A stretch of 61,856 bases of DNA, filler included, from Pseudobdellovibrionaceae bacterium (GTDB lineage Bacteria; Bdellovibrionota; Bdellovibrionia; Bdellovibrionales; UBA1609), in NCBI GenBank assembly GCA_030591685.1. It is 5 parts of 5 records of this genome, joined end to end, with 100 filler letters (N's around TTAATTAATTAA, not from the genome) between each part and the next. Parts side by side here need not be neighbours in the genome. Positions count along the whole stretch, not along the records: positions 18,277 to 40,558 come from JAUVAX010000035.1; 4 more parts are not named here. The stretch is one strand, 5' to 3'. Below, in pieces: positions 18,177 to 40,658 of this stretch. A model generated the notes under the pieces. The model did no database searches. It was given only the letters and a program-made list of their open reading frames with translations, and was not told where the DNA came from. A program made the translations under genes and the position numbers. Position 1 is the stretch's first letter, and each line of letters starts with the position of its first letter.

Positions 18177-18276
18177 NNNNNNNNNNNNNNNNNNNNNNNN
18201 NNNNNNNNNNNNNNNNNNNNTTAATTAATTAANNNNNNNNNNNNNNNNNNNNNNNNNNNNNNNNNNNNNNNNNNNN
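18177..18276. other. Artificial contig linker
   Basis: N-run with central TTAATTAATTAA. Confidence 0.98.
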
Positions 18277-20198: not shown

Positions 20199-21072
20199 GG
20201 GGTTTAAGTTTTCATTATTATTTGCAGGCTTGTGGCTTATATTCACATTAACGCTTGTTATTTGGTGGCTTGCAAAAGTTCTTTCTATATTAAAACAAGC
20301 GAAATCACCTTTAGGGATTTCGGGCTCCATATCAAAGCTTGAGAATATGATTTTATGGGAGGGCGTGTCTCTAGTTTTACTTATTATTGTTGGGGCGGTG
20401 CCACTGATTTACCTTATTAAAAAAGAGGCTTTCAGGGCCGAGAGTTTTAAACAGTTTTTTGCTCATTTTTCACATGATCTTAAAACATCAATAGCAAGTT
20501 TAAGATTACAAGTGGAGTGTTTACTTGATAATTTACAGGGCACAGATGAGGGGAACAAAAAACTTTTAAGCCGTATCCTTTCAGACACTAACCGATTACA
20601 ATTGCAGCTAAATAACTCACTTTATTTAACACAGTTAAAGACGCCCAAGTTATTTTTTGAAAAAATTAATTCAGCCGATTTTTTTGAAAATCTAACATAC
20701 CGGTGGCCTCATCTGAAGTTTTCAATTAATGGATCCGCTGTTATTGAGGCTGACAGGTACTTTTTAGAGAGTTTATTTAATAACCTTTGTCAGAACAGCA
20801 CTCTTCATGGAAAGGCCCGATCTGTAGATATAAAAGTATCTTCTGATGATGAAGGGTTTATAAAAATTATATTTAATGACGATGGGGTAGGCTTTAATGG
20901 TGAGGTATCAAGCCTTACTAAGCCTTTTTTACGACATGGAGTTACAAGTGGAAGTGGACTTGGTTTGTTTTTAATTCAGCAGCTATCAAAGGCCTTAGGG
21001 GGGGAGTTTGGGGTTTCTGACCCGAACCATGGATTTGAGGTTTTTATCAAATTAAAAGGTGTAGTTTTATGA
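20185..21072 (+). CDS. Sensor histidine kinase (two TM, short extracytoplasmic loop)
   Basis: Start reassigned to ATG 20185 (RBS AAGGA); two TM helices, H-box [10 protein letters not shown]-box NNLCQNS, DDGVG, GSGLGL. Confidence 0.88.
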
Positions 21073-21749
21073 AAAAAATCCTCCTTGTTGAAGACGACGA
21101 TACACTTGGTGCCACACTGTCAGAAAAGCTTCAAGGTGAAGGCTATGAGGTCTTTTGGGATCAAACTCTAAGTGGAGCCCAAAAACATATTGATTCAATT
21201 GCATTTGATGTGGTTATTTTTGACCTGGGTTTGCCCGATGGGACGGGGTTTGATGCGGCCCAAGCACTTAAAGAAAGGTCAAAGGCTCCCTTTTTATTTG
21301 TTACAGCCCAAACTGATGCGCAGACTCGGCTTGAAGCCTTTGAGCTTGGGGCTGAAGAGTTTATACCTAAGCCCTTTCATATTAAAGAACTTCTTATGAG
21401 ACTAAAGCATGTTTTAGAAAACCATTTGCCGATACGTCAAATTATTTATGAGCACTTTCTCGTTGATCTTGATGGGCTATGTCTTGTGTTTAAAAGTGGG
21501 GAGAGAAAGGTCTTAGTCCCGAGAGATTTTGAAATATTAAAGTTTTTAATACATAAAGCACCATCTGTTGTTAGTCGTGACGAGATACTAAAAAAAATCT
21601 GGGGAGTAGAAGAATACCCCTCAACGAGGACGGTTGATAATTCAATCGTGAGGATTAGACAGACATTAGCCCCTTTTTCAGATGAGTACTTGCTATCTGT
21701 AAGGGGAGTTGGGTATAAATGGATAAACAACAAAGGGCGGCAGCATTGA
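21069..21749 (+). CDS. OmpR/PhoB-family response regulator
   Basis: LLVEDD, IFDLGLPDGTG, KPF, winged-helix SRDEILKKIWG..TRTVDNSI..SVRGVGY. Confidence 0.93.
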   Translation: MKKILLVEDDDTLGATLSEKLQGEGYEVFWDQTLSGAQKHIDSIAFDVVIFDLGLPDGTGFDAAQALKERSKAPFLFVTAQTDAQTRLEAFELGAEEFIPKPFHIKELLMRLKHVLENHLPIRQIIYEHFLVDLDGLCLVFKSGERKVLVPRDFEILKFLIHKAPSVVSRDEILKKIWGVEEYPSTRTVDNSIVRIRQTLAPFSDEYLLSVRGVGYKWINNKGRQH

Positions 21750-22768
21750 GTAGCGAAAGATTTCAAAATGCTTTAAGGGCAAAACCCCAAAGCACACCAC
21801 CGATTTGGTTTATGAGGCAAGCGGGTCGCTATCATGAGCATTATCAGCAAATGAAGAAAAAGCATACCTTTGTTGAACTCTGCAAAAACCCAGAGTTGGC
21901 AGCAGAGGTAGCACTTGGCCCCATTAGGGACTTTGATTTTGATGTTTCTATTATGTTTAGCGACTTACTCTTCCCCCTAGAGTCTTTGGGCTTTGGCTTA
22001 GAGTATTCTCCGGGACCTGTGTTAGATAAAAAACTAACCCCTGAGGTTTTAAAAAATTTAAAACCTCTAGAAGAAGCTATCGAAGGGGTCATGTTTCAAA
22101 AACAAGTAGCCCTTGCCACAAAAGAGATGCTGCCAAAAGATAAAAGTTTAATTGGATTTGTTGGGGGCCCTTGGACGCTATTTACCTACGCCATTGAAGG
22201 TTCACATAAAGCTCTTATGTGTGAAGTTAAAAATGACATGGATTTATTTGAGGCTTTTTGTGAAAGATTAATCCCATTTTTAATTAAAAACATTCAACTA
22301 CAGCTTGATGGTGGGGTAGAGCTTGTAATGATTTTTGATACAGCCGCTGGAGAGCTCTCTCCTGGGATGTATAACCAGTACATAGTCCCTCAGCTTGAAA
22401 AAATGATAAATGCTCATAAGGGTAAGCTGGGATATTATGGCCAAAAATTAACAGATGACCATTTGGCTCCAAAAATTAAAAGCCAATCCAGCCTTGTTGG
22501 TATTGGCGTGGATCACCGGTTTCAAATAAGTCGTGTACTGCAACAAAGAAAGTCAGGGTTTATTCAGGGTAATTTTGATCAAACATTATTATTTGCTCCG
22601 AGTGAGACTTTTAAAAAGTATTTATTAGAGTATTTGGCCCCGTTAAAAGAGTTAACAAATGAGCAAAGAGCGGGGTGGGTTTGTGGGCTCGGCCACGGTG
22701 TGTTACCTAAAACTCCTGAAAATAATGTCAGAGATTTTGTGCAAATTATTAGAAAGGAATTTTCTTAA
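21746..22768 (+). CDS. hemE: Uroporphyrinogen decarboxylase
   Basis: PPIWFMRQAGRY, FSDLL, LIGFVGGPWTL, QGNFD, LGHGVLP; likely TTG start overlapping the regulator stop (TTGA). Confidence 0.93.
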   Translation: MSSERFQNALRAKPQSTPPIWFMRQAGRYHEHYQQMKKKHTFVELCKNPELAAEVALGPIRDFDFDVSIMFSDLLFPLESLGFGLEYSPGPVLDKKLTPEVLKNLKPLEEAIEGVMFQKQVALATKEMLPKDKSLIGFVGGPWTLFTYAIEGSHKALMCEVKNDMDLFEAFCERLIPFLIKNIQLQLDGGVELVMIFDTAAGELSPGMYNQYIVPQLEKMINAHKGKLGYYGQKLTDDHLAPKIKSQSSLVGIGVDHRFQISRVLQQRKSGFIQGNFDQTLLFAPSETFKKYLLEYLAPLKELTNEQRAGWVCGLGHGVLPKTPENNVRDFVQIIRKEFS

Positions 22769-22771
22769 ATC

Positions 22772-23776
22772 ATGAAGGTAGCAGTGGTTATTGTAAATCT
22801 AGGGACACCTTCTGAGCTTACACTAAAGTCTGTGAAGTCATTTTTGTTGCAATTTTTGTTAGATCCGCTCGTGATTGATATCCCATACTTGTTTAGGCAA
22901 ATATTAGTTCGTTTTTTTATTGTTCCCTTTAGATCTAAAAAATCCCTTGCGGCTTATAAAAAAGTTTGGACTGATGAGGGGTCTCCGTTATTTATTGAAA
23001 GCAAGAAGTTACGTGATAAGCTGCAAGTATCCCTAGGGGACAAGGCCCATGTTTTTTTAGCTATGCGCTATGGGAGCCCAAGTGTTAAATCTGTATTAAC
23101 AGAAATTAATTATCAGTTGTTTGATAAAATAATTTTAATGCCTCTTTACCCTCAATACAGTTGGTCAACAGTGAGGTCGGCATTGAGGGAGTACTCCAAA
23201 GTTAAGAGGCAACTCAGTATTAAGGGTAAAACAAAGGTCATAGATGCGTACTATGACAAACCTAAGTACATTAGAGCTTTAACTGATAGTATGGATGATT
23301 ATGTCTCTGATTATGACCATGTATTGTTTTCTTTTCATAGCCTGCCTATAAGTCAAATAATAAAGCAAGACCAATCATCTCAGTGCTTTACAGAGCGCTG
23401 CTGTGAGGGCTCAGAGGGCTGTCAACGTCATTGCTACAGAGCTCAGTGCATTGCGACCTTTCAGCTCGTAGCGGAGCAACTCTCATTACTCCCTGAAAAT
23501 TGCAGTCTATCATTTCAATCGAGAGTGGGTAAAAAGTGGTTGTCCCCATTTACTGACGAGACTATTATTTCTCTGGCTCAATCAGGGGTTAAAAAATTAG
23601 CTGTCGTATGCCCGGGGTTTGCTACAGACTGTCTTGAAACTTTAGAAGAAATAGATATTGAGTGTAAAAACCTATTCCTCACTCATGGTGGCGAGGAGTT
23701 TAAATTTATACCTTGTCTAAATGACAGTGACTTTGCAATAGAGGCCTATAAAAAAATAATTGAACCGAGTTTGTAA
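22772..23776 (+). CDS. hemH: Ferrochelatase
   Basis: VNLGTP, AMRYGSP, PLYPQYS, FSFHSLP, SFQSR, FATDCLETLEE, IPCLND. Confidence 0.95.
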   Translation: MKVAVVIVNLGTPSELTLKSVKSFLLQFLLDPLVIDIPYLFRQILVRFFIVPFRSKKSLAAYKKVWTDEGSPLFIESKKLRDKLQVSLGDKAHVFLAMRYGSPSVKSVLTEINYQLFDKIILMPLYPQYSWSTVRSALREYSKVKRQLSIKGKTKVIDAYYDKPKYIRALTDSMDDYVSDYDHVLFSFHSLPISQIIKQDQSSQCFTERCCEGSEGCQRHCYRAQCIATFQLVAEQLSLLPENCSLSFQSRVGKKWLSPFTDETIISLAQSGVKKLAVVCPGFATDCLETLEEIDIECKNLFLTHGGEEFKFIPCLNDSDFAIEAYKKIIEPSL

Positions 23777-23811: not shown

Positions 23812-24456
23812 CTATTGATTCAAAGCCCCTGACTCAATCCAGTCGTTTATAATTTTAACATCCTAAGGTAAGAGTTGGATAGCCGTCGTGCCCATTCGCT
23901 CTCCAGCTGTGGGGTCAATAATTGTTTTATATAGTTGGCTGTTCATGGGGTCTCCAACGGTAACTAGACTCTTAATTTGCGTGTAGGAGCTCATTTGAGG
24001 ATTTTGATTACTATGACAACCCAGGCACTTAGAGCTTATAATTTCATTCACTTGAAAAAAGAAGACTTGGTCAACTCCTCCGGTTGGGGTCCCTAAAATC
24101 CAATTAGCAATACTGTCCTTGTCTGAATTTGTAATGCTTAGGGTGTCGTGGGGAGGGAGTAAGTCAATCATGGATTGATATAATAACGAGTTTTGCGGCT
24201 CGCCCATTACTAATACGGATCGACCGTCAATTTGTTGAGCTTCAAGGGTGGGAAAGTCTAAAATATCAGGTATTGCTGAATTTACGCCAGAACTCGGACT
24301 GTGACAAGAAGTGCATTTATCCTCAAGCACCTTACCGGCTAATGATGCGTAACTTTCAAAATATAGTTCAGCCTCTTCGTGAGAGGAACAGTTTTGAAAA
24401 TTGGTCAGTAGTATCGTGATTCCGATGATCACAGATAATAATTTAAATTCTCGCAT
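23812..24456 (-). CDS. Di-heme cytochrome c lipoprotein (planctomycete-type cytochrome domains); in-frame TAG at 23863-23865
   Basis: Lipobox-like TNFQN-C; CTSCH and CLGCH; each domain has GxPxNSxLY; the second domain's terminal helix IINDWIESGA lies after the TAG. Confidence 0.75.
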
Positions 24457-24473
24457 AATCGCACCCCTTAAAA

Positions 24474-26276
24474 CTAATTATTCAAAGCTCCATTACCTAG
24501 CCAAACTTTAATTCTCTCTCTTAGGTTCTCTCCATTGGCAACGGCATCTAATCCATTATCAGCGGGCATTTTTTTCAAGTAGTCGTACTCCCCAATGGGT
24601 GAGAGTCTTCGATACATATCACTAGTAATAAGTTCTTCGGGGACACGGGTCCCTAAAACACCATTAGGGGCCACCATAGAGTCAAAGTCAGTTAAGTCAT
24701 AATTGTTTTTAACTCTGTTATTATGACATTCTAAACAATGCTCAGTGAACACGTCTCGCATTAAGTTTTGAAGGTTAATCGAGTTAGGGTAGCTGTTGCT
24801 TTCCTGGTCGGCATCACTGGCAAGAATATTTAAATCTAAGCTGTTATTTACCCCTATTAGAGCTCCAGATACCAAGTCCTCAGAAAGAAACATTGATATG
24901 GTCTCTTGTGGTTCAAATCTACGATCATTAGAAATCATGACATCAAAATACTTTATTAATACTGGGTTCCCACTGCTGTCGACTTCACCTGGGATAAATT
25001 CAAGGCGATTATTTAGGACCTTATAATCCCAATTAAAATTATTAATAGATCCGACAACCTCATCTATAGTCACCCCATCATTAAAGGGCTTTGCGGTTCC
25101 ACTGTCAGCAGAGTTATTAATGCCCAGAGTCACTGTGATTTTAAACTCAGGGGGGGCACTTATGCGAATACCCACCTGAACGATTGTTTTAGGTTGAAGC
25201 TCTTCATCTTTAATGCCATCAAAGGGGTTTTCAGCGACTCCGGCCATAGAGGCAACAGTAAAATCAACTCTCACTGGCTGAGGGGGTCTATCTGTTTCGA
25301 CAAGTTCAATTTTTTCAAAAGAGAGGCTCATCACATCACTGGCATAAACTTTAGTTACAGCAATCATTGTCCCCGTTGAAAGTAAATCGGTGTTGGTGAG
25401 GTTCCTAAAGCGGCCATCCGTATCAGCAGCCTTCTCAGATGCCGTGACATATTTAATTATTTTATCTATGTAGGTGTATGTTGATTCATCAAGTATGTAC
25501 TCACCGTTAACTTTAACTCTGAGTCCTTTAATACGTACACCAAGGAGTTTATCATTATTTGTAGGGTCATCATCTGTGCCGGGAGTGCCTTTAGGGCCAG
25601 GGTCAAAACTTGTAAGATCTAAAGTGGGATTAAAAATTTCATAAAAGAGCTTGTCCTCAATACGACGAATTCTAACATCCATATGAATTTGAGCACCTGT
25701 TAAATTGGGTAGTTCTCCGTCAGTTGTTGAAATCGTATCTTTACCTAGGTTCCATGTAATGGTTGTTGTGGGGCCAATGAAGTCATCGCTGAGTGTAGGG
25801 TCAGCACTAATACCAATAGAGCGTGTGTCGATCCAACTTGTCAGGTCAACTTGAGGGCCGACACTAGTTCCACAGAGCGCCTCTTCAGAAAGAGCCTTCT
25901 CAAAACCCTGTTCAAACTCATTAATAATTACAGCATGTTTAGACCCAGAGTAGGGTGAGTTATGATTAGGATCGACTGCATATTTGTCCACCTTAAAGTA
26001 GCCAACGTTCATAAAGGCATCAAAGGCCACCTCAGTATTAGAGTCAGAAAAGGCACCCTTCCCTGTTCCGTTAGATGTATGGCAGGCTGCACAGTTTTGT
26101 TTGAGAAAGGGAGCATAAGTGCGTTCAAAGTAAGGACCAATGGCGCAACCCTTTAGACTTGATGAGTTTAGTTCACCACCCTCAAGGCCTGAATGCCTCG
26201 GTGAACAGGCATTAAAGTACACAGGCAAAAGCCCAGCGCACAGGGTGAGTAAAAATGTAAGTCTCTTACGGTCCAT
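24474..26276 (-). CDS. Di-heme cytochrome c lipoprotein with Calx-beta-like domain
   Basis: Lipobox VYFNA-C; CAACH near N-terminus; Calx-beta-like GTAK..DY..LEFIPGE..ISNDRRFEPQETI; C-terminal CLECH..KMP..IKVWLGNGA. Confidence 0.75.
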   Translation of the reverse strand: MDRKRLTFLLTLCAGLLPVYFNACSPRHSGLEGGELNSSSLKGCAIGPYFERTYAPFLKQNCAACHTSNGTGKGAFSDSNTEVAFDAFMNVGYFKVDKYAVDPNHNSPYSGSKHAVIINEFEQGFEKALSEEALCGTSVGPQVDLTSWIDTRSIGISADPTLSDDFIGPTTTITWNLGKDTISTTDGELPNLTGAQIHMDVRIRRIEDKLFYEIFNPTLDLTSFDPGPKGTPGTDDDPTNNDKLLGVRIKGLRVKVNGEYILDESTYTYIDKIIKYVTASEKAADTDGRFRNLTNTDLLSTGTMIAVTKVYASDVMSLSFEKIELVETDRPPQPVRVDFTVASMAGVAENPFDGIKDEELQPKTIVQVGIRISAPPEFKITVTLGINNSADSGTAKPFNDGVTIDEVVGSINNFNWDYKVLNNRLEFIPGEVDSSGNPVLIKYFDVMISNDRRFEPQETISMFLSEDLVSGALIGVNNSLDLNILASDADQESNSYPNSINLQNLMRDVFTEHCLECHNNRVKNNYDLTDFDSMVAPNGVLGTRVPEELITSDMYRRLSPIGEYDYLKKMPADNGLDAVANGENLRERIKVWLGNGALNN

Positions 26277-26297
26277 TAAAATACCCCTATAAAATTT

Positions 26298-27752
26298 CTA
26301 ACTGCTTCTGTTTCCAATTTTAATAATTTTATCTAAATCTGTTGAAGTAAAAAATCTTGGGATTACAGACTGAACTAAACTGAGCCTATTACAAAAAGCT
26401 AAGTAGTTTGCAAAAATCCCAGCTAAAGCTCTCTCAGGGTTTCCGCCCGTAATAAAGCTTTCTTCAGCGGACTGCCCTTCGTTAAAATACCCTAATTGAA
26501 AACTGTTAGACATAGGGGGGCCTGCTGGATCGTAGGCCATCATATATAGAGCTCCTCCACCACCTCTGTCAGAAGTCCAAATACCTCCGGCCTGAGAATC
26601 GGGTCCCGTAACGGCTCCATCAGTTGTTACAATTAAAAAGGCTTTTTTATTTAAAACTTGAAAGGACGACAGAACTTTACCGATCATCTCCCCCGCTTCA
26701 AGGTCACGCTGATCTCCTGTTGTGCGTGTCCCATTATGGTAGTCATAACCACCAAGGTTAATATTGGCCACTCCTGTTTTATTATTTAAAACGTTAAAAA
26801 CAATACTTGCGGACACAAAATCTCGGCTTCGAGTACTTGTGTTATTATTAATCCCCCAAACCGTTGCAAAGTCGGCATTACTTGTAGGGTTTAAATTAGA
26901 AGTATCTGCTCCAACAACATCTGCATTGGCCCCTGTCGCACACTGTATGAGTTTCCCCATTTCTGTAGAGCCGGAGGCCGAGGCCAGGTTTCTGACCTGA
27001 GAGCCTGAAAGGTTTTTAATAATTTGAAAAAGCTTGTTTTGCTGCCCAGGGTTTAAATTAGCGGCCAATCGACCGGTCACTCCTAAGGCTCCTGTTATGT
27101 CATTAAATCCAGTGACATTAATGGGTGTAGGGGGGGAGATAATGGCATGCATGTTTCTATTACGCCCTAAGTTGGGGAGTAAAAATCCATTACGGCCGGC
27201 CTTCTCCACCATGCCCTCAATGTTATATGGGTTTCCGGCGCTGTCGTCTCTTGTGCGCACACAGACTCCAACAAAAGCTGTATTAGCCATTGCAGTAGCC
27301 CCTTCAGTTTGTATACCAGTTAAAATACTCGACTGAGTACCGCCAGCGCCTCCATTTGTGTGAAAGGGGGCATTATTAGAAAAGGTCTGAACAATGCCGG
27401 GGGTTTTTCCTAACCCTAATTTGGAGTAACTCCCTAAAGGGTCCAATTGCCCGGTGAGCCCACCAATACCCTGGGGTACAAAGTTTGATGCGAGCCCCGC
27501 TCCGCCAGCAAGGTTTATGACAACTATGGGAACAAGTGCCGGATCGCCCCCTTGAGAACAAATGGCCTCTTGAGCATATGCCACATTATTATTTGCAAGT
27601 AATGAAACTATAGAAGGTACCGTCATGGTAGCTGTGAACTGTATGAGGCCAGCAGAGAGTAATTCACGTCGAGTCATGCTTTTAACAGATTTCTCGTGAA
27701 GCTGCTCAAAGGTTTCTCTTTTTTCGATTTTCTTATCAGTCTTTTTTTTCAT
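26298..27752 (-). CDS. Tat-exported DUF1501-like protein
   Basis: Twin-arginine MTRRELLSAG and AYA cleavage site; VINLAGG, GGYDYH, VTTDG resemble the DUF1501 L.GG / GGWDTH / SEFG blocks. Confidence 0.65.
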   Translation of the reverse strand: MKKKTDKKIEKRETFEQLHEKSVKSMTRRELLSAGLIQFTATMTVPSIVSLLANNNVAYAQEAICSQGGDPALVPIVVINLAGGAGLASNFVPQGIGGLTGQLDPLGSYSKLGLGKTPGIVQTFSNNAPFHTNGGAGGTQSSILTGIQTEGATAMANTAFVGVCVRTRDDSAGNPYNIEGMVEKAGRNGFLLPNLGRNRNMHAIISPPTPINVTGFNDITGALGVTGRLAANLNPGQQNKLFQIIKNLSGSQVRNLASASGSTEMGKLIQCATGANADVVGADTSNLNPTSNADFATVWGINNNTSTRSRDFVSASIVFNVLNNKTGVANINLGGYDYHNGTRTTGDQRDLEAGEMIGKVLSSFQVLNKKAFLIVTTDGAVTGPDSQAGGIWTSDRGGGGALYMMAYDPAGPPMSNSFQLGYFNEGQSAEESFITGGNPERALAGIFANYLAFCNRLSLVQSVIPRFFTSTDLDKIIKIGNRSS

Positions 27753-27779
27753 TTTATTCTCCCGAATAATTTTTACTCG

Positions 27780-28427
27780 TTACATTTCAATGGCGGATAA
27801 ACTAGCCAACATACTGGTACATGCAGTCAATACAATATTATGAGTAGCTGCAGGGCTGTTAGCATTTGAGTCCTGTGCCGCGATACTTAGAAGACCATCT
27901 ATTAGTATACCTGTTTCCTCTGATGTAATATTTCTCTGCCAACATGAGAGGGATAGCTTTTTTAGAACAATTTCTAAATCAGAATTAGACATACTCGACG
28001 GGCCTTCAGAAAAATTTATTGAGCTAAAAAACTGTTCTATGTTTGGCCTTGAAGAGTCTTGTTCAATTAAATCAGAGCACACCTCGCCGGCAACGGCAGC
28101 TATGCTCATCAGGGCTGGGCCTGTTACTTCAGTGGCATAACCGTACTCTGAAATATTTGTCTTTCGCACTTCAAATTCAGCAATGGTACGAGGGTCTACA
28201 TTTTTTAGGCCCGTGCAAGAAACCATATTGTTTAAAAACTGCTTTGCATAAACAACAGATGTTGTTTTAGCTCCAGATAATATTACGAAGTCTTCATCAC
28301 TCTCGCCACTGTTGAGCCCGACTAAGTTAGGGTCAGAAGACCCAAAGTTTCCGCACCCATGGCCGACCAGTAAAAACACAGTGCTGGCGGTGAGAAGTGA
28401 AATAAAAAATTTACTTTTAACTCTCAT
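27780..28427 (-). CDS. Hypothetical Cys-containing lipoprotein
   Basis: Lipobox-like LLVGHG-C; helical C-terminus with AGEVC, SCWQR, TACTSML; co-oriented in operon. Confidence 0.65.
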   Translation of the reverse strand: MRVKSKFFISLLTASTVFLLVGHGCGNFGSSDPNLVGLNSGESDEDFVILSGAKTTSVVYAKQFLNNMVSCTGLKNVDPRTIAEFEVRKTNISEYGYATEVTGPALMSIAAVAGEVCSDLIEQDSSRPNIEQFFSSINFSEGPSSMSNSDLEIVLKKLSLSCWQRNITSEETGILIDGLLSIAAQDSNANSPAATHNIVLTACTSMLASLSAIEM

Positions 28428-28440
28428 ATTCTTTCTCCAT

Positions 28441-30711
28441 TTATTTACCTAAACACTCTTCTTTTGTCGCAATTTCTTCAAATAATCCCTTTAACTTATA
28501 ACCATTTACTTTAAAATTAGTCGCTGCTACATCGAGCATTTCTTGGTCATAAATAACAGGGTCTCGTTTGCATACAGAGCGATAAACTCTTTTAGCCATA
28601 CATGTTGGGAAGGCCTTTGAGTTAGAAAGCATTGTTGCAAAACCATTAACTCCATATCCACTTTGTACTGAAGGCCATCCAAAATAATTGGCATTAGCAC
28701 CCTTGTTTGCATAGTTAATAAAAGAGTTAGACATCATGTAATATCCGCTAGGGTATACGCTGTCGTTGTGGTTCATTTTCTTCACAATTCCTTTAGGGTT
28801 TTGCTCGGTCATAAAGGGGTTTTCATCTGAGGGGTTACCATTGGGTAATATATTTGCATTTTTAACAAAACCGTTTTCAAAAGTGAACTGTCCAAAGGCC
28901 CCTCTTAAACTATCCATAACAGAGTGACAGGCACGGCAAGTAGTTGTGTATTTACTGTGGTCACCGGCAGGGAAGCGATCTATATCACGACCCACAAATG
29001 AATCAGGGCCTTCTGAATCTGACCAGTTATCTATAGGTATACATAAAAACTCCCTAAAGGAGTATTCGACAAGTCTACGGTTTGTGCCCGCAACAGCATG
29101 AGCAGCCATAAAGGCGCGAGATGTTATAGCTCCGGCAGCGTCCGCGGTATCAATAGTTGTGACCGCTCCATCAGAATTAATTTGCTTTTGAGGGGAGGTC
29201 CTAATTAGTACATCAGTATAGTTATAAAACCCATCTTGAAGGCCTTTATAATGATTATTACTCATTAGCATATCTAACTTTGTATTGCTAGGGACACTCG
29301 CCTTAGACGTGTCAGCAATGTAAGAGTAATTGCCTGTTAAAAGTTCACGAGCATCACGGTTATCGCGCGTTGTCCCTATAAACATGGCTATAAAATCTGA
29401 AAATTCTGAGTTCACTGTTTCGTCTCTTGTAGACATACGAGCTGCAAAATCACGCACTGTAATATTGTAAAAATCAGGCTCTTGAGTAGCAAGGGCTGCA
29501 GCTCCAATTAAATCACCGGAGTTAATTAGTACTGACATTTGGGAAATAATTGGGTTAGTCACAGGAGTACTGACGCCAACAAGTCTTTTGTACATAAGCG
29601 AGGCTTTTGAGTGACTGCTGGAGACTACAAAGTTCTCATCTAAAGTTTGTGAACTATAGTGTTTGATCCCCGGCGCCAGAGAACCTAAAATTTGCTCTTT
29701 AGTTAAGGCCTTACAGTATATGGCCGCAAGGTGTATGTTACCATTCCAACTGCGTTTTTCTGACGTGTAAGTGTCCCCATGGTCACTATCGACTTCGTTA
29801 CCAAAGGAGAGCAGAGCATTGGCGTCCCAATCGAGTGAACCTGTAAAATCATTACTCCCAGCAATGGTTTGAATAAATGCATGTGTAGGTACACCGTTAT
29901 CATCATTTCTAGTAATATAGACCTGTGTGGTCCCGTTTGAATCACGTGTGAGAATGATTTGTTGAAGCTTTTTGAGTTCTAGCTTTCCGGGATCAACTTT
30001 TATATTTGCACTGGAAGGGAGAAACTGACCAGCAAAGTCGGGGTTTTCAAATGGTTTTATGGCATTGCTTGTTTTCATGTTGAGCCTGTAAGTAGATTGA
30101 CCACTGTTCCCATCGTACTCTTGACCGATAAAGAAATTACTTCGCGCTGAGGCAAGGCTTTCAACAAGGGTTCCACCGAGGGGGTTTATATTTTCTGTTT
30201 GAGAGGTTAAGGCAATAATTCGTGCTGGTGCGAAAACAAGTTTCTCGAGTTGTTTATCCTTCATATCCACTTCGTTTTCAACCCAAAGCTCTATAGTAAA
30301 AGCATTGCTTGCATTACAAGCATCGAGTACTTTACTGGCCACAGGGGAGGTGAGGCGGTTATTAGACGCTCCAAGTGTGAGATATGTTTTAGTCAATGGA
30401 GAGGCTGTGATATTAGCAGGGGAATTCGCCGGAATACTTAAAGAACCTGTCCCCACAGCATTCATATACTTTATAGATAAGTTTAAGGGGCTGCCAACAT
30501 TAGAAACATCTACAACTTGATCCCCTGAAACAGAGTTAAATAAATAAAGACTTTGAAGGCCAAGATCATTCATCTTTGACTGCCAGTCCCCTTGATTGTA
30601 CAGATGAGCATTCCCACTTTCATCAGAATAGTTGCCAAAGACATCTAAGCCATAGGCTGACTGAGAAATGCAGAAGAGAATTGTAAATGTTAAAAAAAGT
30701 TTTTTTATCAT
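28441..30711 (-). CDS. Secreted LamG-like + mono-heme c protein (DUF1585/1588-like C-terminus)
   Basis: Sec signal (AYG); LamG/ConA-like FTIELWV..ARIIAL..FFIGQ..LSFGNE..WNGNIHLAAIY..ALT; CRACH; FPTCMAKRVYRSVC..LKGLFEEIA. Confidence 0.7.
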   Translation of the reverse strand: MIKKLFLTFTILFCISQSAYGLDVFGNYSDESGNAHLYNQGDWQSKMNDLGLQSLYLFNSVSGDQVVDVSNVGSPLNLSIKYMNAVGTGSLSIPANSPANITASPLTKTYLTLGASNNRLTSPVASKVLDACNASNAFTIELWVENEVDMKDKQLEKLVFAPARIIALTSQTENINPLGGTLVESLASARSNFFIGQEYDGNSGQSTYRLNMKTSNAIKPFENPDFAGQFLPSSANIKVDPGKLELKKLQQIILTRDSNGTTQVYITRNDDNGVPTHAFIQTIAGSNDFTGSLDWDANALLSFGNEVDSDHGDTYTSEKRSWNGNIHLAAIYCKALTKEQILGSLAPGIKHYSSQTLDENFVVSSSHSKASLMYKRLVGVSTPVTNPIISQMSVLINSGDLIGAAALATQEPDFYNITVRDFAARMSTRDETVNSEFSDFIAMFIGTTRDNRDARELLTGNYSYIADTSKASVPSNTKLDMLMSNNHYKGLQDGFYNYTDVLIRTSPQKQINSDGAVTTIDTADAAGAITSRAFMAAHAVAGTNRRLVEYSFREFLCIPIDNWSDSEGPDSFVGRDIDRFPAGDHSKYTTTCRACHSVMDSLRGAFGQFTFENGFVKNANILPNGNPSDENPFMTEQNPKGIVKKMNHNDSVYPSGYYMMSNSFINYANKGANANYFGWPSVQSGYGVNGFATMLSNSKAFPTCMAKRVYRSVCKRDPVIYDQEMLDVAATNFKVNGYKLKGLFEEIATKEECLGK

Positions 30712-30734
30712 TTCTTATGCCCTCGTAAAGTTTG

Positions 30735-32612
30735 TTAAGGTAGGTCTACAAAAAATGCAGACCCTGCCAATGTTTTAGTAATTCCATCAATAGTAAACTC
30801 GAGATTAGATAATGGAGCTCCCATAAGAACTTGACCATTACTAACGCTCACAGAAGCTCCCAGAAGAGCAGGGTTTGTGTCAGATCTAAACTCATCCATT
30901 ATTTTATAATCAGCTTTTTCTAAATCAGAACCAACACCAGAGAGGTTATAGTAAAACCCGGCCCCTTTATTATTATCGAATGTATGAGAGCCTACAACAA
31001 GTGATGTGCTATCAAGACTAACACTTATTCCAAAACCTGAAACATTTTGTGCTGTTAACTTATATGGGGTCCCGTTAAAGCCCCCTTTATAAAGGTAAGC
31101 AAACCCTGAACCTTCGCCGTAAGCTCCCACTACAATGTTGGCGCCTTTGACATCTACTGAAACTCCAAAATGATCTTGATCACCAGTACTGGCGGACAGT
31201 TTTGCTGATTGCGAAAAGATACCACCACTTTTCTCAAAGACATAAGCGGCACCTGGGCCTGTTGAAATATTGTAATCACTGCTATAATTGTTGGCTGTAA
31301 CAGGGGCCCCGACCACAAGGGTGTTCCCATCAATGGCAACACTAGAGCCAAAGAGACCTTCTATTTGTCGATCAGAGGGAGTAATTTTTTGTTCAAAAGT
31401 TAATGTTGAATTTAAATTTGCATAAACATAAACGGCACCATGTAGCTTAGGTTGTAATCCTGCGGGGGTTTGTGTGCTTCCATTGTCACCAGGAGCACCA
31501 ACAATAAGGTATCCACCAGAGGCATCTAAGGATTCACCAAAGTGATCCCCTGTTGTTATAACATTGGCACTGCCTGAAGGTAAAAGCTCTTGAGCTTGCT
31601 TGCTCCAATTACCACTAGAGTACCTATATATATAGACAACGCCATTTTTATAAGTCTCCGGGATGCCGGCAGTAGAACGAGTACTTGCGGCACCTAAAAA
31701 CAAGGTATTGCCATCATCACTCATCGCCACACCCTTAAGTTGAGCGGTAGAAAAAGTGGCCGGTGTTAATTTTTGTTCAAAAGACCAGGACCCATTATTT
31801 ATACGGTATACAAAGGCGGCCCCATTACTTGTACTTCCATGGTTAGGAGCCATTATGACTGCAAGGTTCCATTTTATAAGGACTATATTACCGAACCCAC
31901 TTTCAGTCTGCACATCATTACCAGTTGTTGGGGCGCTATCAAGGGCTGTTACTTTTTGAGTATTAAGACACCCTAAGTAGCTACTAGCACTAGGACCTCG
32001 AAGTAAATTTACGTTGACCTCAAGAGTATTAGAAGAAAGTGACTCATCACCACAACTCCACGTGGTTTCAAAACTTACTTTTGCCGAGCCTCCGCCCGAT
32101 AAACACTGAACATTGTTGCCCTGAGTAATACGAACTCTATTGTTACCAGGATTCAATTGCAAATTAAAAATATTACTGGCTATGTCCCCAGAGGAATCAA
32201 AAATATTAGTAAGAGTTCTAGTTCTAGAATCTATTTGCTTTGTGCTGGCACCTCTAAGAGTTTCTTGAATCGTCGGGTTAGGGTGAGTGAGTGTGGCTGT
32301 AAAAGTAATATCAACGTCATTAGAAGTGCCAGACTCGGTGTCCATTCCAATACTATAGTTTACATTAGTCGTTGAAATATTACTTATACTTACGCTGGCT
32401 TGGCTAAAACCAATGCATAAATCGGGCTGTGGAGGAGGCAGCAAAGGGTCACCTGGGTTGCCTGTATTAATTAAAGGGTCAGTCATTGAGTCGAGAGTGT
32501 GTACGTCTCCTGTTGGACCGCAATTTTGATAGGTGAACAAAATTAATGTCAAACTCATAAAAAGCCAAAAGCGTTTAAGCCTATTAATGGTAGAAGTTTT
32601 TTGAATGTTCAT
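30735..32612 (-). CDS. FG-GAP repeat beta-propeller lipoprotein
   Basis: Lipobox-like FTYQN-C; repeats FGESLD..LIVGAP..GAVYVY, FGSSVA..LVVGAP..GAAYVF, FGVSVD..IVVGAY, LGASVS..LMGAP. Confidence 0.85.
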   Translation of the reverse strand: MNIQKTSTINRLKRFWLFMSLTLILFTYQNCGPTGDVHTLDSMTDPLINTGNPGDPLLPPPQPDLCIGFSQASVSISNISTTNVNYSIGMDTESGTSNDVDITFTATLTHPNPTIQETLRGASTKQIDSRTRTLTNIFDSSGDIASNIFNLQLNPGNNRVRITQGNNVQCLSGGGSAKVSFETTWSCGDESLSSNTLEVNVNLLRGPSASSYLGCLNTQKVTALDSAPTTGNDVQTESGFGNIVLIKWNLAVIMAPNHGSTSNGAAFVYRINNGSWSFEQKLTPATFSTAQLKGVAMSDDGNTLFLGAASTRSTAGIPETYKNGVVYIYRYSSGNWSKQAQELLPSGSANVITTGDHFGESLDASGGYLIVGAPGDNGSTQTPAGLQPKLHGAVYVYANLNSTLTFEQKITPSDRQIEGLFGSSVAIDGNTLVVGAPVTANNYSSDYNISTGPGAAYVFEKSGGIFSQSAKLSASTGDQDHFGVSVDVKGANIVVGAYGEGSGFAYLYKGGFNGTPYKLTAQNVSGFGISVSLDSTSLVVGSHTFDNNKGAGFYYNLSGVGSDLEKADYKIMDEFRSDTNPALLGASVSVSNGQVLMGAPLSNLEFTIDGITKTLAGSAFFVDLP

Positions 32613-32721
32613 TAAACCTCCCCTGGGCTTACGTTGTATCTATATGAGATAAAAACGTTACTCTTCAAATCTTCTTAAATTAAAAATTTTTTTATCGTGC
32701 TCAACTTAATTTATAGTTAAA

Positions 32722-32737
32722 AGCAATGTGTGTGCCA
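32722..32737 (-). promoter_or_regulatory. Sigma-54 (-24/-12) promoter of the six-gene operon
   Basis: Minus strand TGGCAC-ACACA-TTGCT, exact TGGCAC-N5-TTGCW consensus, about 110 nt upstream of ATG 32612. Confidence 0.8.
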
Positions 32738-33036: not shown

Positions 33037-34698
33037 CTAGTGTCTAACATAGGCTTCAGCAAGGTTTACAGTATGGTTTTTAATTCGCCTTAAGGATACT
33101 GAAATATCACTAAGAGTGAGACTGGCAAGAGGTGGGTACTTGCCCTCTTTAACCCGTTGTAAATAATTGTCTTTAATGGTGTTTGCGTATTTATTAAAGG
33201 CATTAATAAGGGTATTGAATTTTTCCATATCTAAGTGTTGCTTGTTTTTTATTGAGGCCTGGACAAGGTCAAATAATTCGATGTTAGAAGTGATTAAGTA
33301 CTCAAGCTCTTTTAATGTTTCTAAATCATAAACGATGTTGTCATCAAATCGTCTTGAAGAGTAATGAATGATAGAGTCACAGTAATCACTAATAGACTCC
33401 AGTTCATCACTTTCTCTCGTGATTGCAGAGGATCGAACAGATTGCAGCTGCGAAAGAGGCTTTTCAATGACCTTGCTTATAAAAATCATGATTTCTTTTT
33501 GCATGTTATCAGTGATGTCCTCATACTTTTTGACTCTGTTCTCTTCATTTAATTTTCTTTCTTTGGAGAGTAAGTATGATTTGGTGTCCTCTAAAGAGAT
33601 TTTCACTAAATCAGCCATTTTTACAATTTCTTGATGGGCCTGTTCAAGGGCCATAGCTGGTGAGAGGTTTTCTATGTCTCCAAAAAACTCTAGATGTTTA
33701 GTCTCTTTTTTATCTTTACCTGGTAAGATTTTAACGACAATGTTTTTTAAGGGGTTAAGAAAGGGCAAAAATATAAGTACGTTAATAACATTAAATGCAG
33801 TATGCCCGGCCGCGATATGTGCCGCTATATGGGGCCTAGAGCCGTCACTGGCTGTGAAGTCAGCAAGTCCTGGAATGAGGACTTCGACAAGCTCCTTGTA
33901 GCTCCAAAAAAAAGTGGTCAGTGTTAAAACTCCTAAAACATTAAACAGGGCATGAGCTAAGCTCGCCCTTTTAGCATTAGTGTTTGCCCCCACACCAGCA
34001 AGTAAAGCGGTTATTGTTGTTCCGATGTTTTCACCCATAACCAGTGCTAGGGCCGTTTGAAAATTTATGGCTCCAGACACAGCTAAAGCAATGGTGATAC
34101 CTAACATTGCAGAACTAGACTGAATTATAAAAGTTAACATACACCCTACGCCGATAGTGGCTAGCAAAGATAGGTAGGAGTCGGCCGTGAAATAAACAAG
34201 CAAAGACATAAACCCCTCATCAGTTTTTAAGGGGGCAAAAGCACTGCTCATATATTTTAGGCCAATAAATATAAACCCCACGCCTAAGAGGGTGTTGCAG
34301 AGGTATTTAAATTTTTCACTCTTAATGAGAATTGGCGCTAAGCCTCCAAATGCTATAAATAAAAGCCCATATTTACTCACTTTAAATGAAATAATCCACC
34401 CGGTAATAGTTGTGCCAATGTTGGCACCAAAGATAATACCGATGGCTTGAGTTAAGTTCATAAGCCCTGCATTTACAAAGCCAATAACCATAACTGTTGT
34501 AACAGAGCTGGATTGAACAATACACGTGACCACAAGACCAACAAATACAGCTGAAAAACGATTGGTAGTAAGGCTATTAATCAGTGTTCTAACTATAGCA
34601 CCTGAGGCCGCCTGTAGATTGTCAGAGAGTAGCTTCATGCCAAAGAAGAATATCCCTAAGCCCCCTAGAACTGTGTAAGTTAACTTAAACCAATCCAT
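33037..34698 (-). CDS. Na+/Pi cotransporter with C-terminal PhoU-like domain
   Basis: GGLGIFFFGM, two QSSS repeats, GANIGTT and GENIGTT, helical PhoU-like C-terminus. Confidence 0.92.
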   Translation of the reverse strand: MDWFKLTYTVLGGLGIFFFGMKLLSDNLQAASGAIVRTLINSLTTNRFSAVFVGLVVTCIVQSSSVTTVMVIGFVNAGLMNLTQAIGIIFGANIGTTITGWIISFKVSKYGLLFIAFGGLAPILIKSEKFKYLCNTLLGVGFIFIGLKYMSSAFAPLKTDEGFMSLLVYFTADSYLSLLATIGVGCMLTFIIQSSSAMLGITIALAVSGAINFQTALALVMGENIGTTITALLAGVGANTNAKRASLAHALFNVLGVLTLTTFFWSYKELVEVLIPGLADFTASDGSRPHIAAHIAAGHTAFNVINVLIFLPFLNPLKNIVVKILPGKDKKETKHLEFFGDIENLSPAMALEQAHQEIVKMADLVKISLEDTKSYLLSKERKLNEENRVKKYEDITDNMQKEIMIFISKVIEKPLSQLQSVRSSAITRESDELESISDYCDSIIHYSSRRFDDNIVYDLETLKELEYLITSNIELFDLVQASIKNKQHLDMEKFNTLINAFNKYANTIKDNYLQRVKEGKYPPLASLTLSDISVSLRRIKNHTVNLAEAYVRH

Positions 34699-34828: not shown

Positions 34829-35389
34829 CTATAGTTTTTGCAGAAATTTAATGATCTCAGTAGGTGACATAATGTATGTGGGTTTCATCTCTCTTAATGC
34901 CGAGTCCGGCATTATTGGCGCTGTGGCTGTTTTTGGGTCCTGAACAATAGTGGTCCCTCCCTGCTTTTGGACCTCTTTAAGCCCCTCAGTGCCGTCACAG
35001 TTGAGACCGGTAAGAAGGATTGCTAACACTCTGTTTTTATAGACTTTGGCCGCCGATTTAAAAAGGTCATTAATAGATGGTTTACAGCTAAAAAAAGGGG
35101 CTCCATCTGATAGTCCTACCTTTTGAATGTGCGTCACAATTAAATGGGAGCCTGGTGGGGCAAAGTAAATATAATTAGCTCGAATCTTCTGCTGCTCCGT
35201 GCCCCACATAATGTCTAACTCAGAGCGTATATGGATTTGATGTAACCAGTTTTTATCAAAATTTTTTGTGATGTGATTTACTGCCAGTATTGGGGCCTCA
35301 AAATCACCAGGGATTTTGGGTAAAATTTTCTCATAAACTGTTAACCCCCCAAGAGAGGCTCCCATGACAACAACGCCGTAATCTATCAT
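34829..35389 (-). CDS. cheB: Stand-alone CheB-type methylesterase domain
   Basis: GASLGG (Ser), VNH (His), KPSINDLFKSAA, LLTGLNCDG (Asp), TIVQDP..A..PIMP; no receiver domain. Confidence 0.85.
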   Translation of the reverse strand: MIDYGVVVMGASLGGLTVYEKILPKIPGDFEAPILAVNHITKNFDKNWLHQIHIRSELDIMWGTEQQKIRANYIYFAPPGSHLIVTHIQKVGLSDGAPFFSCKPSINDLFKSAAKVYKNRVLAILLTGLNCDGTEGLKEVQKQGGTTIVQDPKTATAPIMPDSALREMKPTYIMSPTEIIKFLQKL

Positions 35390-35390
35390 T

Positions 35391-36101
35391 TTATGCAGCC
35401 AGTAAGCTTTTTGCTTTATTAATACGCTGCTTTAATACACTGACCTCTTCTTTGAGTTTAATATTTTCATTTTGTAGCTTTAAGACCTCTGTGTTCAAAA
35501 GTTTTAGTTTTTGAACAACCTTCTCAACGTTTCTTTTATTATCTGGGCTTTGTAAACTATTAAGTTCACCGGTACTGACGCTCATTTCATTAGGTACCGT
35601 TTCGACAGGTCTTTTTAGCTTTTGGTCACTATCTAGTGAGTCTTCAATATCGGGTAAGATATAAAGTTTTTCATCAATCATTTTTATATTTAAATCACCT
35701 TGGTTAATCATATATCTCACTTCTTCTATAATTTTAACAAAAGCTGTCGAAATTTCAGCCTTTGAGGGTGTTTTTTCACTCATCAGTCCAAGAATGCGTT
35801 TTTTGTGTCCATGGGTAAAAGTTCCTGTGCATTTTTCAAAGGTTTCAGGGGGCAGGCCCTTAAAGGCAATGGCTAAAGTTAAGTCCTGCAGTCGGGGTAC
35901 AATTTCAGCTAAAACAGTAGCGTCCCATAAAAGTATTCTTTCAAGTGTTAGAATTTTACTCTCTAAGGCCAGGGCCCAATCTGTGTTTTCACTCTCTACA
36001 TTTTCAAGAAGTTTTTGCTGTTTTTGAGGTCCGCAGGTTTCTATAAGTTGGACAAGTTGAACAAATCCGCCGGGTCTTTGGTATCTAGTGAGCATGGACA
36101 T
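35391..36101 (-). CDS. FliG C-terminal-like domain protein with C-terminal coiled coil
   Basis: GGFVQLVQLIET..KQQKLL, LAIAFKGL and AFVKIIEEVRYM resemble FliG-C helices; heptad tail LKLLNTEVLKLQNENIKLKEEVSVLKQRI. Confidence 0.55.
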   Translation of the reverse strand: MSMLTRYQRPGGFVQLVQLIETCGPQKQQKLLENVESENTDWALALESKILTLERILLWDATVLAEIVPRLQDLTLAIAFKGLPPETFEKCTGTFTHGHKKRILGLMSEKTPSKAEISTAFVKIIEEVRYMINQGDLNIKMIDEKLYILPDIEDSLDSDQKLKRPVETVPNEMSVSTGELNSLQSPDNKRNVEKVVQKLKLLNTEVLKLQNENIKLKEEVSVLKQRINKAKSLLAA

Positions 36102-40558: not shown

Positions 40559-40658
40559 NNNNNNNNNNNNNNNNNNNNNNNNNNNNNNNNNNNNNNNNNN
40601 NNTTAATTAATTAANNNNNNNNNNNNNNNNNNNNNNNNNNNNNNNNNNNNNNNNNNNN
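40559..40658. other. Artificial contig linker
   Basis: N-run with central TTAATTAATTAA. Confidence 0.98.

Follow-up and report, generated by a model that had tools for sequence, protein, structure and literature searches.

A sigma-54-promoted operon of the Bdellovibrionota with a conserved four-gene core: putative haem proteins and a Tat-signal protein of predicted alkaline-phosphatase fold

The stretch of DNA analysed here (61,856 nucleotides from a Pseudobdellovibrionaceae bacterium, assembly GCA_030591685.1; hereafter the window) consists of several contigs strung together, with runs of N at positions 14648-14747, 18177-18276, 40559-40658 and 55110-55209. One of these contigs, of 22,282 bp (18277-40558), is the sole stretch contiguous with the operon that is the subject of this work: six co-oriented open reading frames (ORFs) of the minus strand, occupying positions 23863-32612 behind a sigma-54-type promoter and transcribed in the order g6 to g1. 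The operon is real, conserved and uncharacterised; the system is not surprising in kind. The host genome (2.66 Mb in 98 contigs) was rated 100% complete, and the nearest named relatives of g3 come from metagenome-assembled Bdellovibrionales and Pseudobdellovibrionaceae. The features of the operon are listed below in the order of transcription, with window coordinates.

32722-32737, minus strand: sigma-54 (-24/-12) promoter TGGCAC-N5-TTGCT (TGGCACACACATTGCT), an exact match located 109 nucleotides ahead of the ATG of g6.
30735-32612, minus strand: g6 (625 amino acids), with a lipobox-like signal, an N-terminal part of about 230 amino acids of no known family and an FG-GAP beta-propeller.
28441-30711, minus strand: g5 (756 amino acids), with a Sec-type signal (SAYG/L), a LamG/ConA-like domain and a helical core with one haem motif.
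29677-30615, minus strand: LamG/ConA-like jelly-roll domain of g5 (residues about 33-345), a predicted fold match; accessory.
28444-29619, minus strand: conserved helical core of g5 (residues about 365-756), a remote homologue of the DUF1592 end, DUF1588 (PSCyt3) and DUF1585 (PSD2).
28924-28938, minus strand: putative haem-attachment motif CRACH of g5 (C592, C595 and H596).
27780-28427, minus strand: g4 (215 amino acids), a small predicted lipoprotein of no known family, conserved as a third component between g5 and g3.
26298-27752, minus strand: g3 (484 amino acids), a protein with a twin-arginine translocation (Tat) signal and a predicted alkaline-phosphatase-superfamily fold, belonging to an unnamed family.
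27654-27674, minus strand: twin-arginine motif TRRELLS of g3.
26736-26753, minus strand: motif GGYDYH of g3 (G334 to H339), following a core beta-strand and counterpart of the DUF1501 motif GG[WYF]D.H.
24474-26276, minus strand: g2 (600 amino acids), a predicted lipoprotein whose N-terminal cytochrome c domain is joined by a long middle part to a C-terminal domain that contains CLECH.
26079-26093, minus strand: CAACH motif in the N-terminal cytochrome c domain of g2.
24723-24737, minus strand: CLECH motif in the C-terminal domain of g2.
23863-24456, minus strand: g1 (197 amino acids), a small dihaem-motif predicted lipoprotein of PSCyt1 type; accessory.
24301-24315, minus strand: CTSCH motif of g1.
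24013-24027, minus strand: CLGCH motif of g1.

From g6 to g1 the genes are separated by 23, 13, 27, 21 and 17 nucleotides, and a purine-rich ribosome-binding site (of GGAG, GAGG or GGGG type) is found ahead of all six ATGs. The six products all carry an export signal, as read by eye from the translations, and four of them display a lipobox-like cysteine (YQNC in g6, GHGC in g4, FNAC in g2 and FQNC in g1). Five CXXCH motifs are distributed over three products: CRACH in g5, CAACH and CLECH in g2, CTSCH and CLGCH in g1. The first-pass annotation of this locus had proposed six co-oriented genes with gaps of 13-27 nucleotides and export signals throughout, five CXXCH motifs over three proteins and an exact sigma-54 promoter, and we confirmed these three points: the ribosome-binding sites and the lipobox, Sec and Tat signals are in place, and the coordinates of all five haem motifs were verified, with the motifs conserved in homologues. 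No internal terminator rises above background within the operon (5 found against 8.0 expected), and the 3' spacer beyond g1 folds no better than its shuffled versions (z -0.38). The genome contains one cytochrome-c assembly gene and TatC. An antisense ORF of 100 amino acids lies within g3 (27034-27336, plus strand) and is most likely a chance frame.

Of 41 related genomes, 21 gave a match to the profile built from g3; in a sample covering the phylum (301 genomes from 170 genera), 121 genomes in 74 genera did so, with up to four copies per genome. Synteny was surveyed around 38 g3 copies in 36 loci, of which 20 were taken from the list of related genomes and 16 from the phylum survey, the latter being our own choice to cover other families. 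Every ORF of these loci was scanned with hidden Markov models (HMMs) built for g2 to g5; the starts of the ORFs follow a longest-ORF rule, so that overlaps are approximate. The gene g5 is found directly upstream of g3 in 36 copies out of 38 and g4 stands between the two in 34, while a CXXCH protein lies directly downstream of g3 in 31; all four core genes are together in 29 copies out of 38, and the median gaps within the core are 0.5, 13.5 and 11 nucleotides. The conserved unit is thus composed of four genes: the g5 core, g4, g3 and g2. Synteny of the homologues had been set beforehand as a test of the first-pass annotation, and the position of g5 in 36 of 38 copies answers it in the affirmative. 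The six genes proposed there do form a real operon in the window, but the unit that is conserved has four, since g6, g1 and the LamG part of g5 occur at 6 of 20 loci.

The protein g3 was modelled with AlphaFold2 (predicted local distance difference test score, pLDDT, of 82) and the model was compared with 48,161 chains using VIA-align. This search gave 56 chains with a Z score of at least 8, the highest being 11.7. The 50 entries listed are without exception members of the alkaline-phosphatase superfamily, namely sulfatases, NPPs, phosphoethanolamine transferases, phosphoglycerate and phosphopentose mutases, alkaline phosphatases and LtaS-type enzymes. The matches to the same superfamily obtained with Foldseek are weak but consistent. 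The core alpha/beta fold of the alkaline phosphatases is therefore recognised on the predicted model, which agrees with the suggestion of the first-pass annotation that the Tat-exported protein is of enzyme type. A helical insertion of about 100 residues (approximately 216-322) is present in the model. A sequence-profile search of the PDB with g3 returned chance-level matches only.

An alignment of 35 homologues reveals that R28 and R29 of the twin-arginine motif are invariant (35/35), as are D337, Y338 and H339 of the GGYDYH motif. The invariant residues of the mature part are mostly acidic (D170, D337, D350, D378 and D395), with H339 as the single invariant histidine, and two further residues are nearly invariant, D169 and S141, each conserved in 32 of 35 sequences; S141 is located at the start of a helix. 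In the model, the invariant acidic residues and histidine follow the core strands. The formylglycine signature C/S-x-P/A-x-R is absent from g3 of the window, and chance matches to it were seen in 7 of the 35 members, with at most two per alignment column.

No Pfam or NCBIfam family was found for g3. The first-pass annotation had called the protein DUF1501-like, and this holds as a resemblance, in the Tat signal and in the GGYDYH motif; membership does not hold, as none of the 35 family members matches PF07394 and g3 belongs to a family of its own. The DUF1501 model (PF07394, cut-off 27 bits) gave no match in g3 nor in the 35 members at E<=1, and a six-frame scan of the genome with it returned only an unrelated fragment on another contig. 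The DUF1552 model (PF07586) likewise had no match in g3 or the 35 homologues and none in the whole genome at E<=0.01, and the motif HXXSHH is absent from g3, in which H339 is the sole conserved histidine of the mature part. Profile comparisons with hhalign used 18 sequences for DUF1552 and sets of 3, 5 and 44 sequences for DUF1501. The similarity to DUF1501 profiles is weak (27% with 5 sequences and 39% with 44 sequences; E values from 3e-4 to 7e-4), and the alignment obtained with 44 sequences (E value of 3e-4) extends over 119 columns that include the signal peptide. The comparison with DUF1552 aligned the signal peptide only, and in global mode nothing was aligned with either family. Among the clusters that a protein language model placed near g3 and that carry a name, 29 of 30 are DUF1501, at 0.93. 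An HMM scan of 1.84 billion representative sequences recovered 1,054 clusters at E<=0.001, including 517 at E<=1e-30. That the profile is confined to these 1,054 clusters indicates a bounded family, which stays separate from the much larger DUF1501 family.

The haem partner g5 was modelled with a pLDDT of 75 overall, the blocks of its core being mostly above 90. This core was compared by hhalign, as an alignment of 20 g5-family rows, with seven canonical proteins of the architecture cytochrome c-DUF1587-DUF1595-DUF1592-DUF1588-DUF1585. These seven proteins are encoded next to DUF1552 genes in genomes of the same phylum, and their domain make-up was checked. The two profiles align over 235 columns with a probability of 95.8% and an E value of 8e-9, and the CXXCH motifs are in register. 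The homology thus covers the haem module (DUF1588) and the tail (DUF1585) of these proteins. All 20 aligned homologues have the CXXCH motif, and the core contains other invariant cysteine, aspartate and arginine residues. In Pfam, g5 of the window matches PSD2 (DUF1585) only, at its extreme C-terminus and with 21.3 bits for a cut-off of 25.8; in 13 of the 19 homologues PSD2 scores between 16.3 and 25.4 bits, and PSD4 or PSCyt3 is matched in none. Neither g5 of the window nor any of these 19 homologues reaches the gathering scores of PSD4, PSCyt3 or PSD2. The nearest language-model look-alikes of g5 are clusters that are unnamed or named "putative DUF1585", and the next ones carry PSCyt3, PSD2 or PSD4 on a minority of their members. 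The PDB sequence-profile search with g5 gave no matches.

Between these two proteins, g4 has four invariant residues, namely the lipobox C25 (16/16), C117, W163 and C203. No relevant Pfam family was found in any of its 16 members, which gave two chance-level matches only, and a sequence search of the PDB with g4 gave no meaningful match. A weak hhalign similarity to the DUF1595 region of the canonical proteins (30%, E value of 5e-4, 35 columns) is a lead, and a lead only, towards g4 being a split-off DUF1595.

The downstream gene of the core, g2, matches Cytochrom_C in Pfam with 24.5 bits, above the cut-off of 21.3, and its C-terminal domain exceeds the PSCyt1 cut-off in 6 of the 12 homologues scanned. 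The small protein g1 matches PSCyt1 (PF07635) with 26.7 bits against a cut-off of 22, and also aligns with the LIC11213-family lipoprotein model (E value of 5e-13, below the cut-off of that model). Both g1 and g2 therefore combine CXXCH motifs with a match above cut-off to a c-type cytochrome or PSCyt1 model, the attachment of haem being putative.

Of the modules that the first-pass annotation had read in the operon, FG-GAP repeats and a LamG-like domain were recovered, and the Calx-beta domain was not. In g6, FG-GAP_2 is matched by four repeats (E value of 2.3e-35, 121 bits), which places the protein among the FG-GAP propellers, and six homologues have four to seven such repeats, some with an Ig or fn3 domain in front. 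The LamG domain of g5 is below the Pfam cut-off (Laminin_G_3, 20.2 bits for 27.6), but the predicted fold is clear: the N-terminal domain gave a top Z score of 16.7 with VIA-align (207 residues aligned, root-mean-square deviation of 3.1), the listed matches extending from 16.7 to 10.2, and a Foldseek match with an E value of 2.6e-6. These matches include CBM40, pentraxins, laminin G, neurexin LNS and the lectin-like subdomains of toxins and sialidases, so that the predicted fold is that of a LamG/ConA-like jelly roll. As modelled, this is a common sugar-binding fold, and it says nothing more. The N-terminal lectin domain took up the results of both fold searches made with g5, and no novelty of fold is claimed for the helical core. 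For Calx-beta (PF03160), residues 131-500 of g2 in the window gave no match at E<=0.05; in the long-form homologues of g2 the score lies between 17 and 24 bits, under the cut-off of 27, in 5 of 7 sequences.

The genes outside the core have a narrower distribution. By BLAST, g6 and g1 are present at 6 of 20 loci only, always with a long, LamG-bearing g5. The short g5 homologues (380-490 amino acids) are devoid of LamG and match residues 350-756 approximately of g5 only. We conclude that g6, g1 and the LamG region of g5 are accessory elements of a single subtype. On a quick tree of g3 the long-g5 loci cluster (6 changes for a mean of 11 after shuffling, with 0 of 500 shuffles as low), and the window falls together with the remaining six-gene loci, on a weak branch with a value of 80. 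The genomes that harbour the long subtype also contain short paralogous modules. The binding modules vary from locus to locus: we found one RCC1 propeller, one lactonase-type propeller and one set of four Calx-beta repeats fused to g4. The latter occurs at a locus (L099:6280-19871, genome G085) with two copies of the module in tandem, in which the g4 domain is fused to proteins of 916 and 1,801 amino acids, the 916-amino-acid fusion bearing the four Calx-beta repeats and one CXXCH. Another locus (L098:6295-17430, genome G150) has, after the four-gene module, genes for a 5'-nucleotidase-type metallophosphoesterase and a zinc alcohol dehydrogenase, and further on genes for a cytochrome c7-like protein with five CXXCH and a molybdopterin/4Fe-4S oxidoreductase with a Tat signal; this respiratory neighbourhood was seen at that locus only.

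Beyond the phylum, named records hold relatives from Gammaproteobacteria and from one metagenome-assembled genome of the Myxococcota, with 25-31% identity. The list of named records (63 loci) was built with 12 closer sequences and is thus biased towards close relatives; 13 of the 63 loci were examined. Among these, the order g5-g4-g3-g2 is kept at four loci of Bdellovibrio or Bacteriovoracia. In the gammaproteobacterial loci, a large CXXCH protein (655-969 amino acids) replaces g4 directly before g3 in six cases out of seven (L148, L149, L162, L163, L145 and L169), and a g5-like gene lies ahead of it at both loci for which the gene listing extended far enough. The carriers of the family include complete genomes titled Bdellovibrio sp. 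and Aestuariibacter salexigens DSM 15300.

Within the window, TGGCAC-N5-TTGCW is matched exactly at a single place, the promoter site at 32722-32737. In the whole genome this pattern has 19 exact matches against one for the reversed-pattern control, and the genome encodes rpoN and 12 strong enhancer-binding proteins, none of the 12 genes being on the contig of the operon. The -24 GG and -12 GC consensus is thus found in the intergenic region upstream of the operon in a genome that has rpoN. The 19 sites against one in the control, together with the 12 enhancer-binding-protein genes, point to a sizeable sigma-54 regulon. A search for upstream activator sites ahead of the promoter gave weak repeats only, none of them convincing. 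No strict consensus is rightly placed upstream of the relatives' clusters; relaxed sites (with at most two mismatches) were detected 34-51 nucleotides before the first gene at 4 of 19 clusters (hand estimate of chance, about 0.4), which suggests that sigma-54 control recurs and is not universal.

On either side of the operon, the flanks (haem-biosynthesis genes and a sodium/phosphate cotransporter) are conserved at none of the 20 relatives' loci. A haem-biosynthesis set is convergent to the operon (18906-23776, plus strand) and is composed of a class-III aminotransferase (hemL-like), a histidine kinase, an OmpR-type regulator, uroporphyrinogen decarboxylase (hemE) and ferrochelatase (hemH). 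The sodium/phosphate cotransporter, fused to a PhoU domain, is encoded at 33037-34698 on the minus strand, directly upstream of the promoter region. On the same strand, 34829-36101 encodes a stand-alone CheB methylesterase domain protein of 186 amino acids, devoid of a receiver domain, and after it a protein of 236 amino acids whose C-terminal domain is of FliG type. Among sequencing runs, no RNA run was found to contain the locus; one DNA run, from a cold-seep metagenome, contains 0.70 of the words sampled from positions 23812-32737 of the window and may represent the source sample.

Taken as a whole, these data lead us to predict that the four-gene core of this sigma-54-promoted operon encodes a lipid-anchored periplasmic enzyme complex, a reading for which we estimate a probability of about 0.55. 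The tight and widely conserved order g5-g4-g3, with gaps near zero, is what is expected of subunits made in fixed proportion. The Tat signal present in every g3 suggests that the protein folds, and probably takes up a metal, before export, and the haem motif of g5 together with the cytochromes g2 and g1 suggests electron transfer. In the working model, haem would be attached at all five CXXCH motifs, and g3 would fold in the cytoplasm, perhaps with its metal, be exported by the Tat system and dock onto g5 and g4. A candidate aspartate-rich metal site of g3 could be formed by D170, D337, H339, D350, D378, D395 and D169, with S141 as candidate nucleophile, and this site might catalyse the cleavage or transfer of a group of ester type. 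Substrate capture, most likely of a glycan or a glycoconjugate, would fall to the LamG domain and the FG-GAP propeller g6 as exchangeable modules. The swaps of such decorations between loci mirror the LamG, WD40 or Big_2 decorations that the relevant sections of Kamneva et al. 2012 (PMC3542564) describe on planctomycete modules.

That the g3-haem module performs redox-coupled chemistry is a more tentative prediction, which we would place somewhat below even odds. In such a scheme, g3 would act on the bound substrate with its alkaline-phosphatase fold while the haems carry electrons to or from it; the haem of g5, connected to the respiratory chain by way of g2 and g1, would drive a coupled redox step or keep a redox-active metal in its working state. 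A still broader proposal, which we judge unlikely, sees in the core the minimal split form of one ancient periplasmic machine that would also underlie the PSCyt+DUF1501 and PSCyt+DUF1552 pairs of Planctomycetota and Verrucomicrobiota. In this machine the haem subunit would enable a metalloenzyme of alkaline-phosphatase fold to cleave or oxidise, in a redox-coupled manner, an ester-linked group of the macromolecules captured, a chemistry that is not known for this fold. Exchangeable lectin and propeller modules would set the substrate.

Several points weigh against an enzyme complex of this kind. To our knowledge, dependence on a haem partner is not known for any enzyme of alkaline-phosphatase fold. 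The protein g3 has no acidic residue right after the first core strand, the usual spot of a metal ligand in enzymes of the alkaline-phosphatase superfamily; the lack of this residue and the single invariant histidine of the mature part make a non-catalytic scaffold possible. The flanking genes, which are not conserved, give no clue to a pathway. For the planctomycete modules, the authors of PMC3542564, in the sections covered, proposed a membrane-linked electron transfer and called the function unclear, and He et al. 2017 (10.1101/150078), as far as the main text that we covered goes, state that nothing is known of the function of PSCyt, DUF1501 and DUF1552 proteins. In the literature searched, no publication deals with this module in Bdellovibrionota, and DUF1501, DUF1552 and PSCyt have no function assigned to them, the supplement of He et al., which discusses PSCyt genes, being outside the search; a paper on Tat export in Caulobacter makes no mention of DUF1501.

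The alternative that survives best places catalysis in g5, whose haem would be open to the substrate, g3 being a non-catalytic scaffold of alkaline-phosphatase fold or a chaperone-like partner exported alongside. The core of g5 is indeed the best-conserved and best-modelled part of the system (pLDDT above 90), invariant polar residues surround its CXXCH motif (D576, R579, D600, R603 and K645), and for the sixth ligand of the haem there is no invariant second histidine, only a near-invariant methionine as an option; g3, for its part, lacks the usual first metal ligand. However, g3 retains an invariant set of acidic residues and histidine at the positions of the metal-binding loops of the superfamily, and a Tat signal conserved in 35 of 35 sequences suggests a folded and probably metal-loaded protein, which leaves this alternative quite unlikely in our opinion. 

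We regard as improbable, and a little more so, that the operon serves phosphate scavenging, with g3 as a plain periplasmic phosphatase or phosphodiesterase, the sodium/phosphate cotransporter as the importer of the phosphate released and the haem proteins as incidental neighbours. Alkaline phosphatases and NPPs are among the fold matches of g3, and the transporter with its PhoU domain lies directly upstream (33037-34698), but it adjoins the cluster at 0 of 20 relatives' loci and the promoter is of sigma-54 type. Moreover, the haem-motif partners are far more conserved as neighbours than any phosphate gene, and the single invariant histidine of mature g3 is unlike the two-zinc phosphatases.

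A sulfatase-like processing of glycans, in which g3 would desulfate a polysaccharide bound by the LamG domain, appears more doubtful again. The top structural match of g3 is a carrageenan sulfatase (Z score of 11.7, tied with others), g5 has a lectin fold of LamG type, and PSCyt genes neighbour sulfatases in freshwater Verrucomicrobia in the part of He et al. covered here (10.1101/150078). This reading is opposed by the formylglycine signature, which is lacking in g3 of the window and in all conserved columns of the family (at most 2 of 35 sequences per column), and by the fact that most family members have no LamG domain.

The least probable reading, which we consider very improbable, is a non-enzymatic surface apparatus for adhesion or prey recognition made of lectin, propeller and Ig-like modules: FG-GAP, LamG and Ig or fn3-like modules are present and the host comes from a predatory lineage, but the binding modules are variable where the haem motifs and the enzyme-type fold are the invariant part, relatives are also found in Gammaproteobacteria that are not predators, Aestuariibacter salexigens being one, and all anchors are of lipoprotein type in an operon without any outer-membrane or secretion component. 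A multihaem extracellular electron conduit was also considered and is ruled out by the presence of only five haem motifs on three proteins and by the absence of a porin gene.

The predicted enzyme complex bears on a wider class of genes. PSCyt/PSD and DUF1501 or DUF1552 genes reach dozens per genome in some Planctomycetota and Verrucomicrobiota, and the portions of the two papers covered (PMC3542564; 10.1101/150078) give them no assigned function since their first description. The split relative described here is unnamed in the current libraries, g3 and g4 being without a Pfam or NCBIfam family and g5 remaining below cut-off, and it is common, with about 1,000 sequence clusters in total and a presence in 121 of the 301 Bdellovibrionota genomes sampled. 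Since each domain is a separate small protein here, the role of the whole class may be most easily worked out in this version. Knock-outs and biochemistry would be feasible in carriers such as Bdellovibrio sp. and Aestuariibacter salexigens DSM 15300.

Among known systems, the Sox system of the periplasm offers a functional analogy only: it combines a Tat-exported metallohydrolase, small dihaem cytochromes and a small cysteine-bearing carrier, and its hydrolase SoxB has a different fold, of metallophosphoesterase type. The alkaline-phosphatase superfamily (type I sulfatases, NPP/ENPP, EptA/MCR-1 and the cofactor-independent phosphoglycerate mutase) shares with g3 the predicted core fold, the model superposing with Z scores of 9-11.7 over 200-245 residues and a root-mean-square deviation of about 4-5 A. 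Unlike these enzymes, g3 shows identities of 5-14% only and no sequence-level match to solved structures, and it lacks the sulfatase signature. It also differs by the helical insertion of about 100 residues, by the single invariant histidine of its mature part and by an obligate neighbour with a haem motif.

Closer relations are found with the modules of planctomycete type, as the first-pass annotation had proposed. The kinship with PSCyt/PSD genes paired with DUF1501 or DUF1552 stands, but g5 is of PSCyt3/PSD2 type, whose usual partner is DUF1552, and not of the DUF1549/DUF1553 type. The pairs of a PSCyt3/PSD haem protein with a Tat-signal DUF1552 protein (motif HXXSHH) were first described in Rhodopirellula baltica, and in the phylum studied here the haem gene precedes DUF1552 at 7 of 8 loci examined. 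Like these pairs, the operon has a gene for a Tat-signal partner close downstream of the gene for the haem protein. Residues 433-752 of g5 align with the DUF1592 end, DUF1588 (with the haem motif in register) and DUF1585, and the N-terminus of g2 aligns with the canonical N-terminal cytochrome at 86%, over a stretch that includes the signal peptide. In contrast, no member of the g5 family reaches the Pfam cut-offs of PSD or PSCyt3, and DUF1587 and DUF1595 were not detected in them. The cytochrome c domain is encoded by a separate gene after the Tat gene (g2), the small lipoprotein g4 is added in between, and the Tat partner g3 is not a DUF1552 protein, having neither the HMM match nor the HXXSHH motif. 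Several genomes (G001, G009 and G023, for example; loci L074-L081) carry classical PSCyt3/PSD and DUF1552 pairs in addition to the g5-g3 module. The two systems thus coexist and do not replace each other.

The second relation is with the DUF1501 proteins that accompany PSCyt1, PSCyt2 and PSD1 (DUF1549/DUF1553). In the sections covered, Kamneva et al. (PMC3542564) report DUF1501 with PSCyt1/2-PSD1 partners, including four-gene clusters, and He et al. (10.1101/150078) report that PSCyt2 genes adjoin DUF1501 and PSCyt3 genes adjoin DUF1552. The Tat signal of g3 is shared with DUF1501 proteins, and its GGYDYH corresponds, after a core strand, to the motif GG[WYF]D.H that we defined from five DUF1501 proteins of the same phylum (L054-L058), aligned to g3 by hhalign at low stringency. 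Both this motif and colinear downstream motifs are found in g3. The gene clusters are also alike in their multi-gene layout, in a second cytochrome, in a signal-peptide protein of unknown family and in lectin or propeller decorations. They are unlike in several residues of the Tat protein: the aspartate of the first strand is an alanine in g3, the later "DH" is "DR", and the colinear later motifs differ in key residues (TTDG versus EFGR and SDRG versus DHG). They are also unlike in the haem partner, g5 being of PSCyt3/PSD2 and not of PSCyt2/PSD1 type. From these profile and motif comparisons, the module appears to mix two planctomycete types, a PSCyt3/PSD2-like haem protein with a Tat partner that is DUF1501-like and not DUF1552-like. 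The operon is therefore best described, at the level of sequence, as a probable distant and unnamed relative of the planctomycete PSCyt and DUF1501/DUF1552 gene pairs, and the members of the module lie below every curated cut-off.

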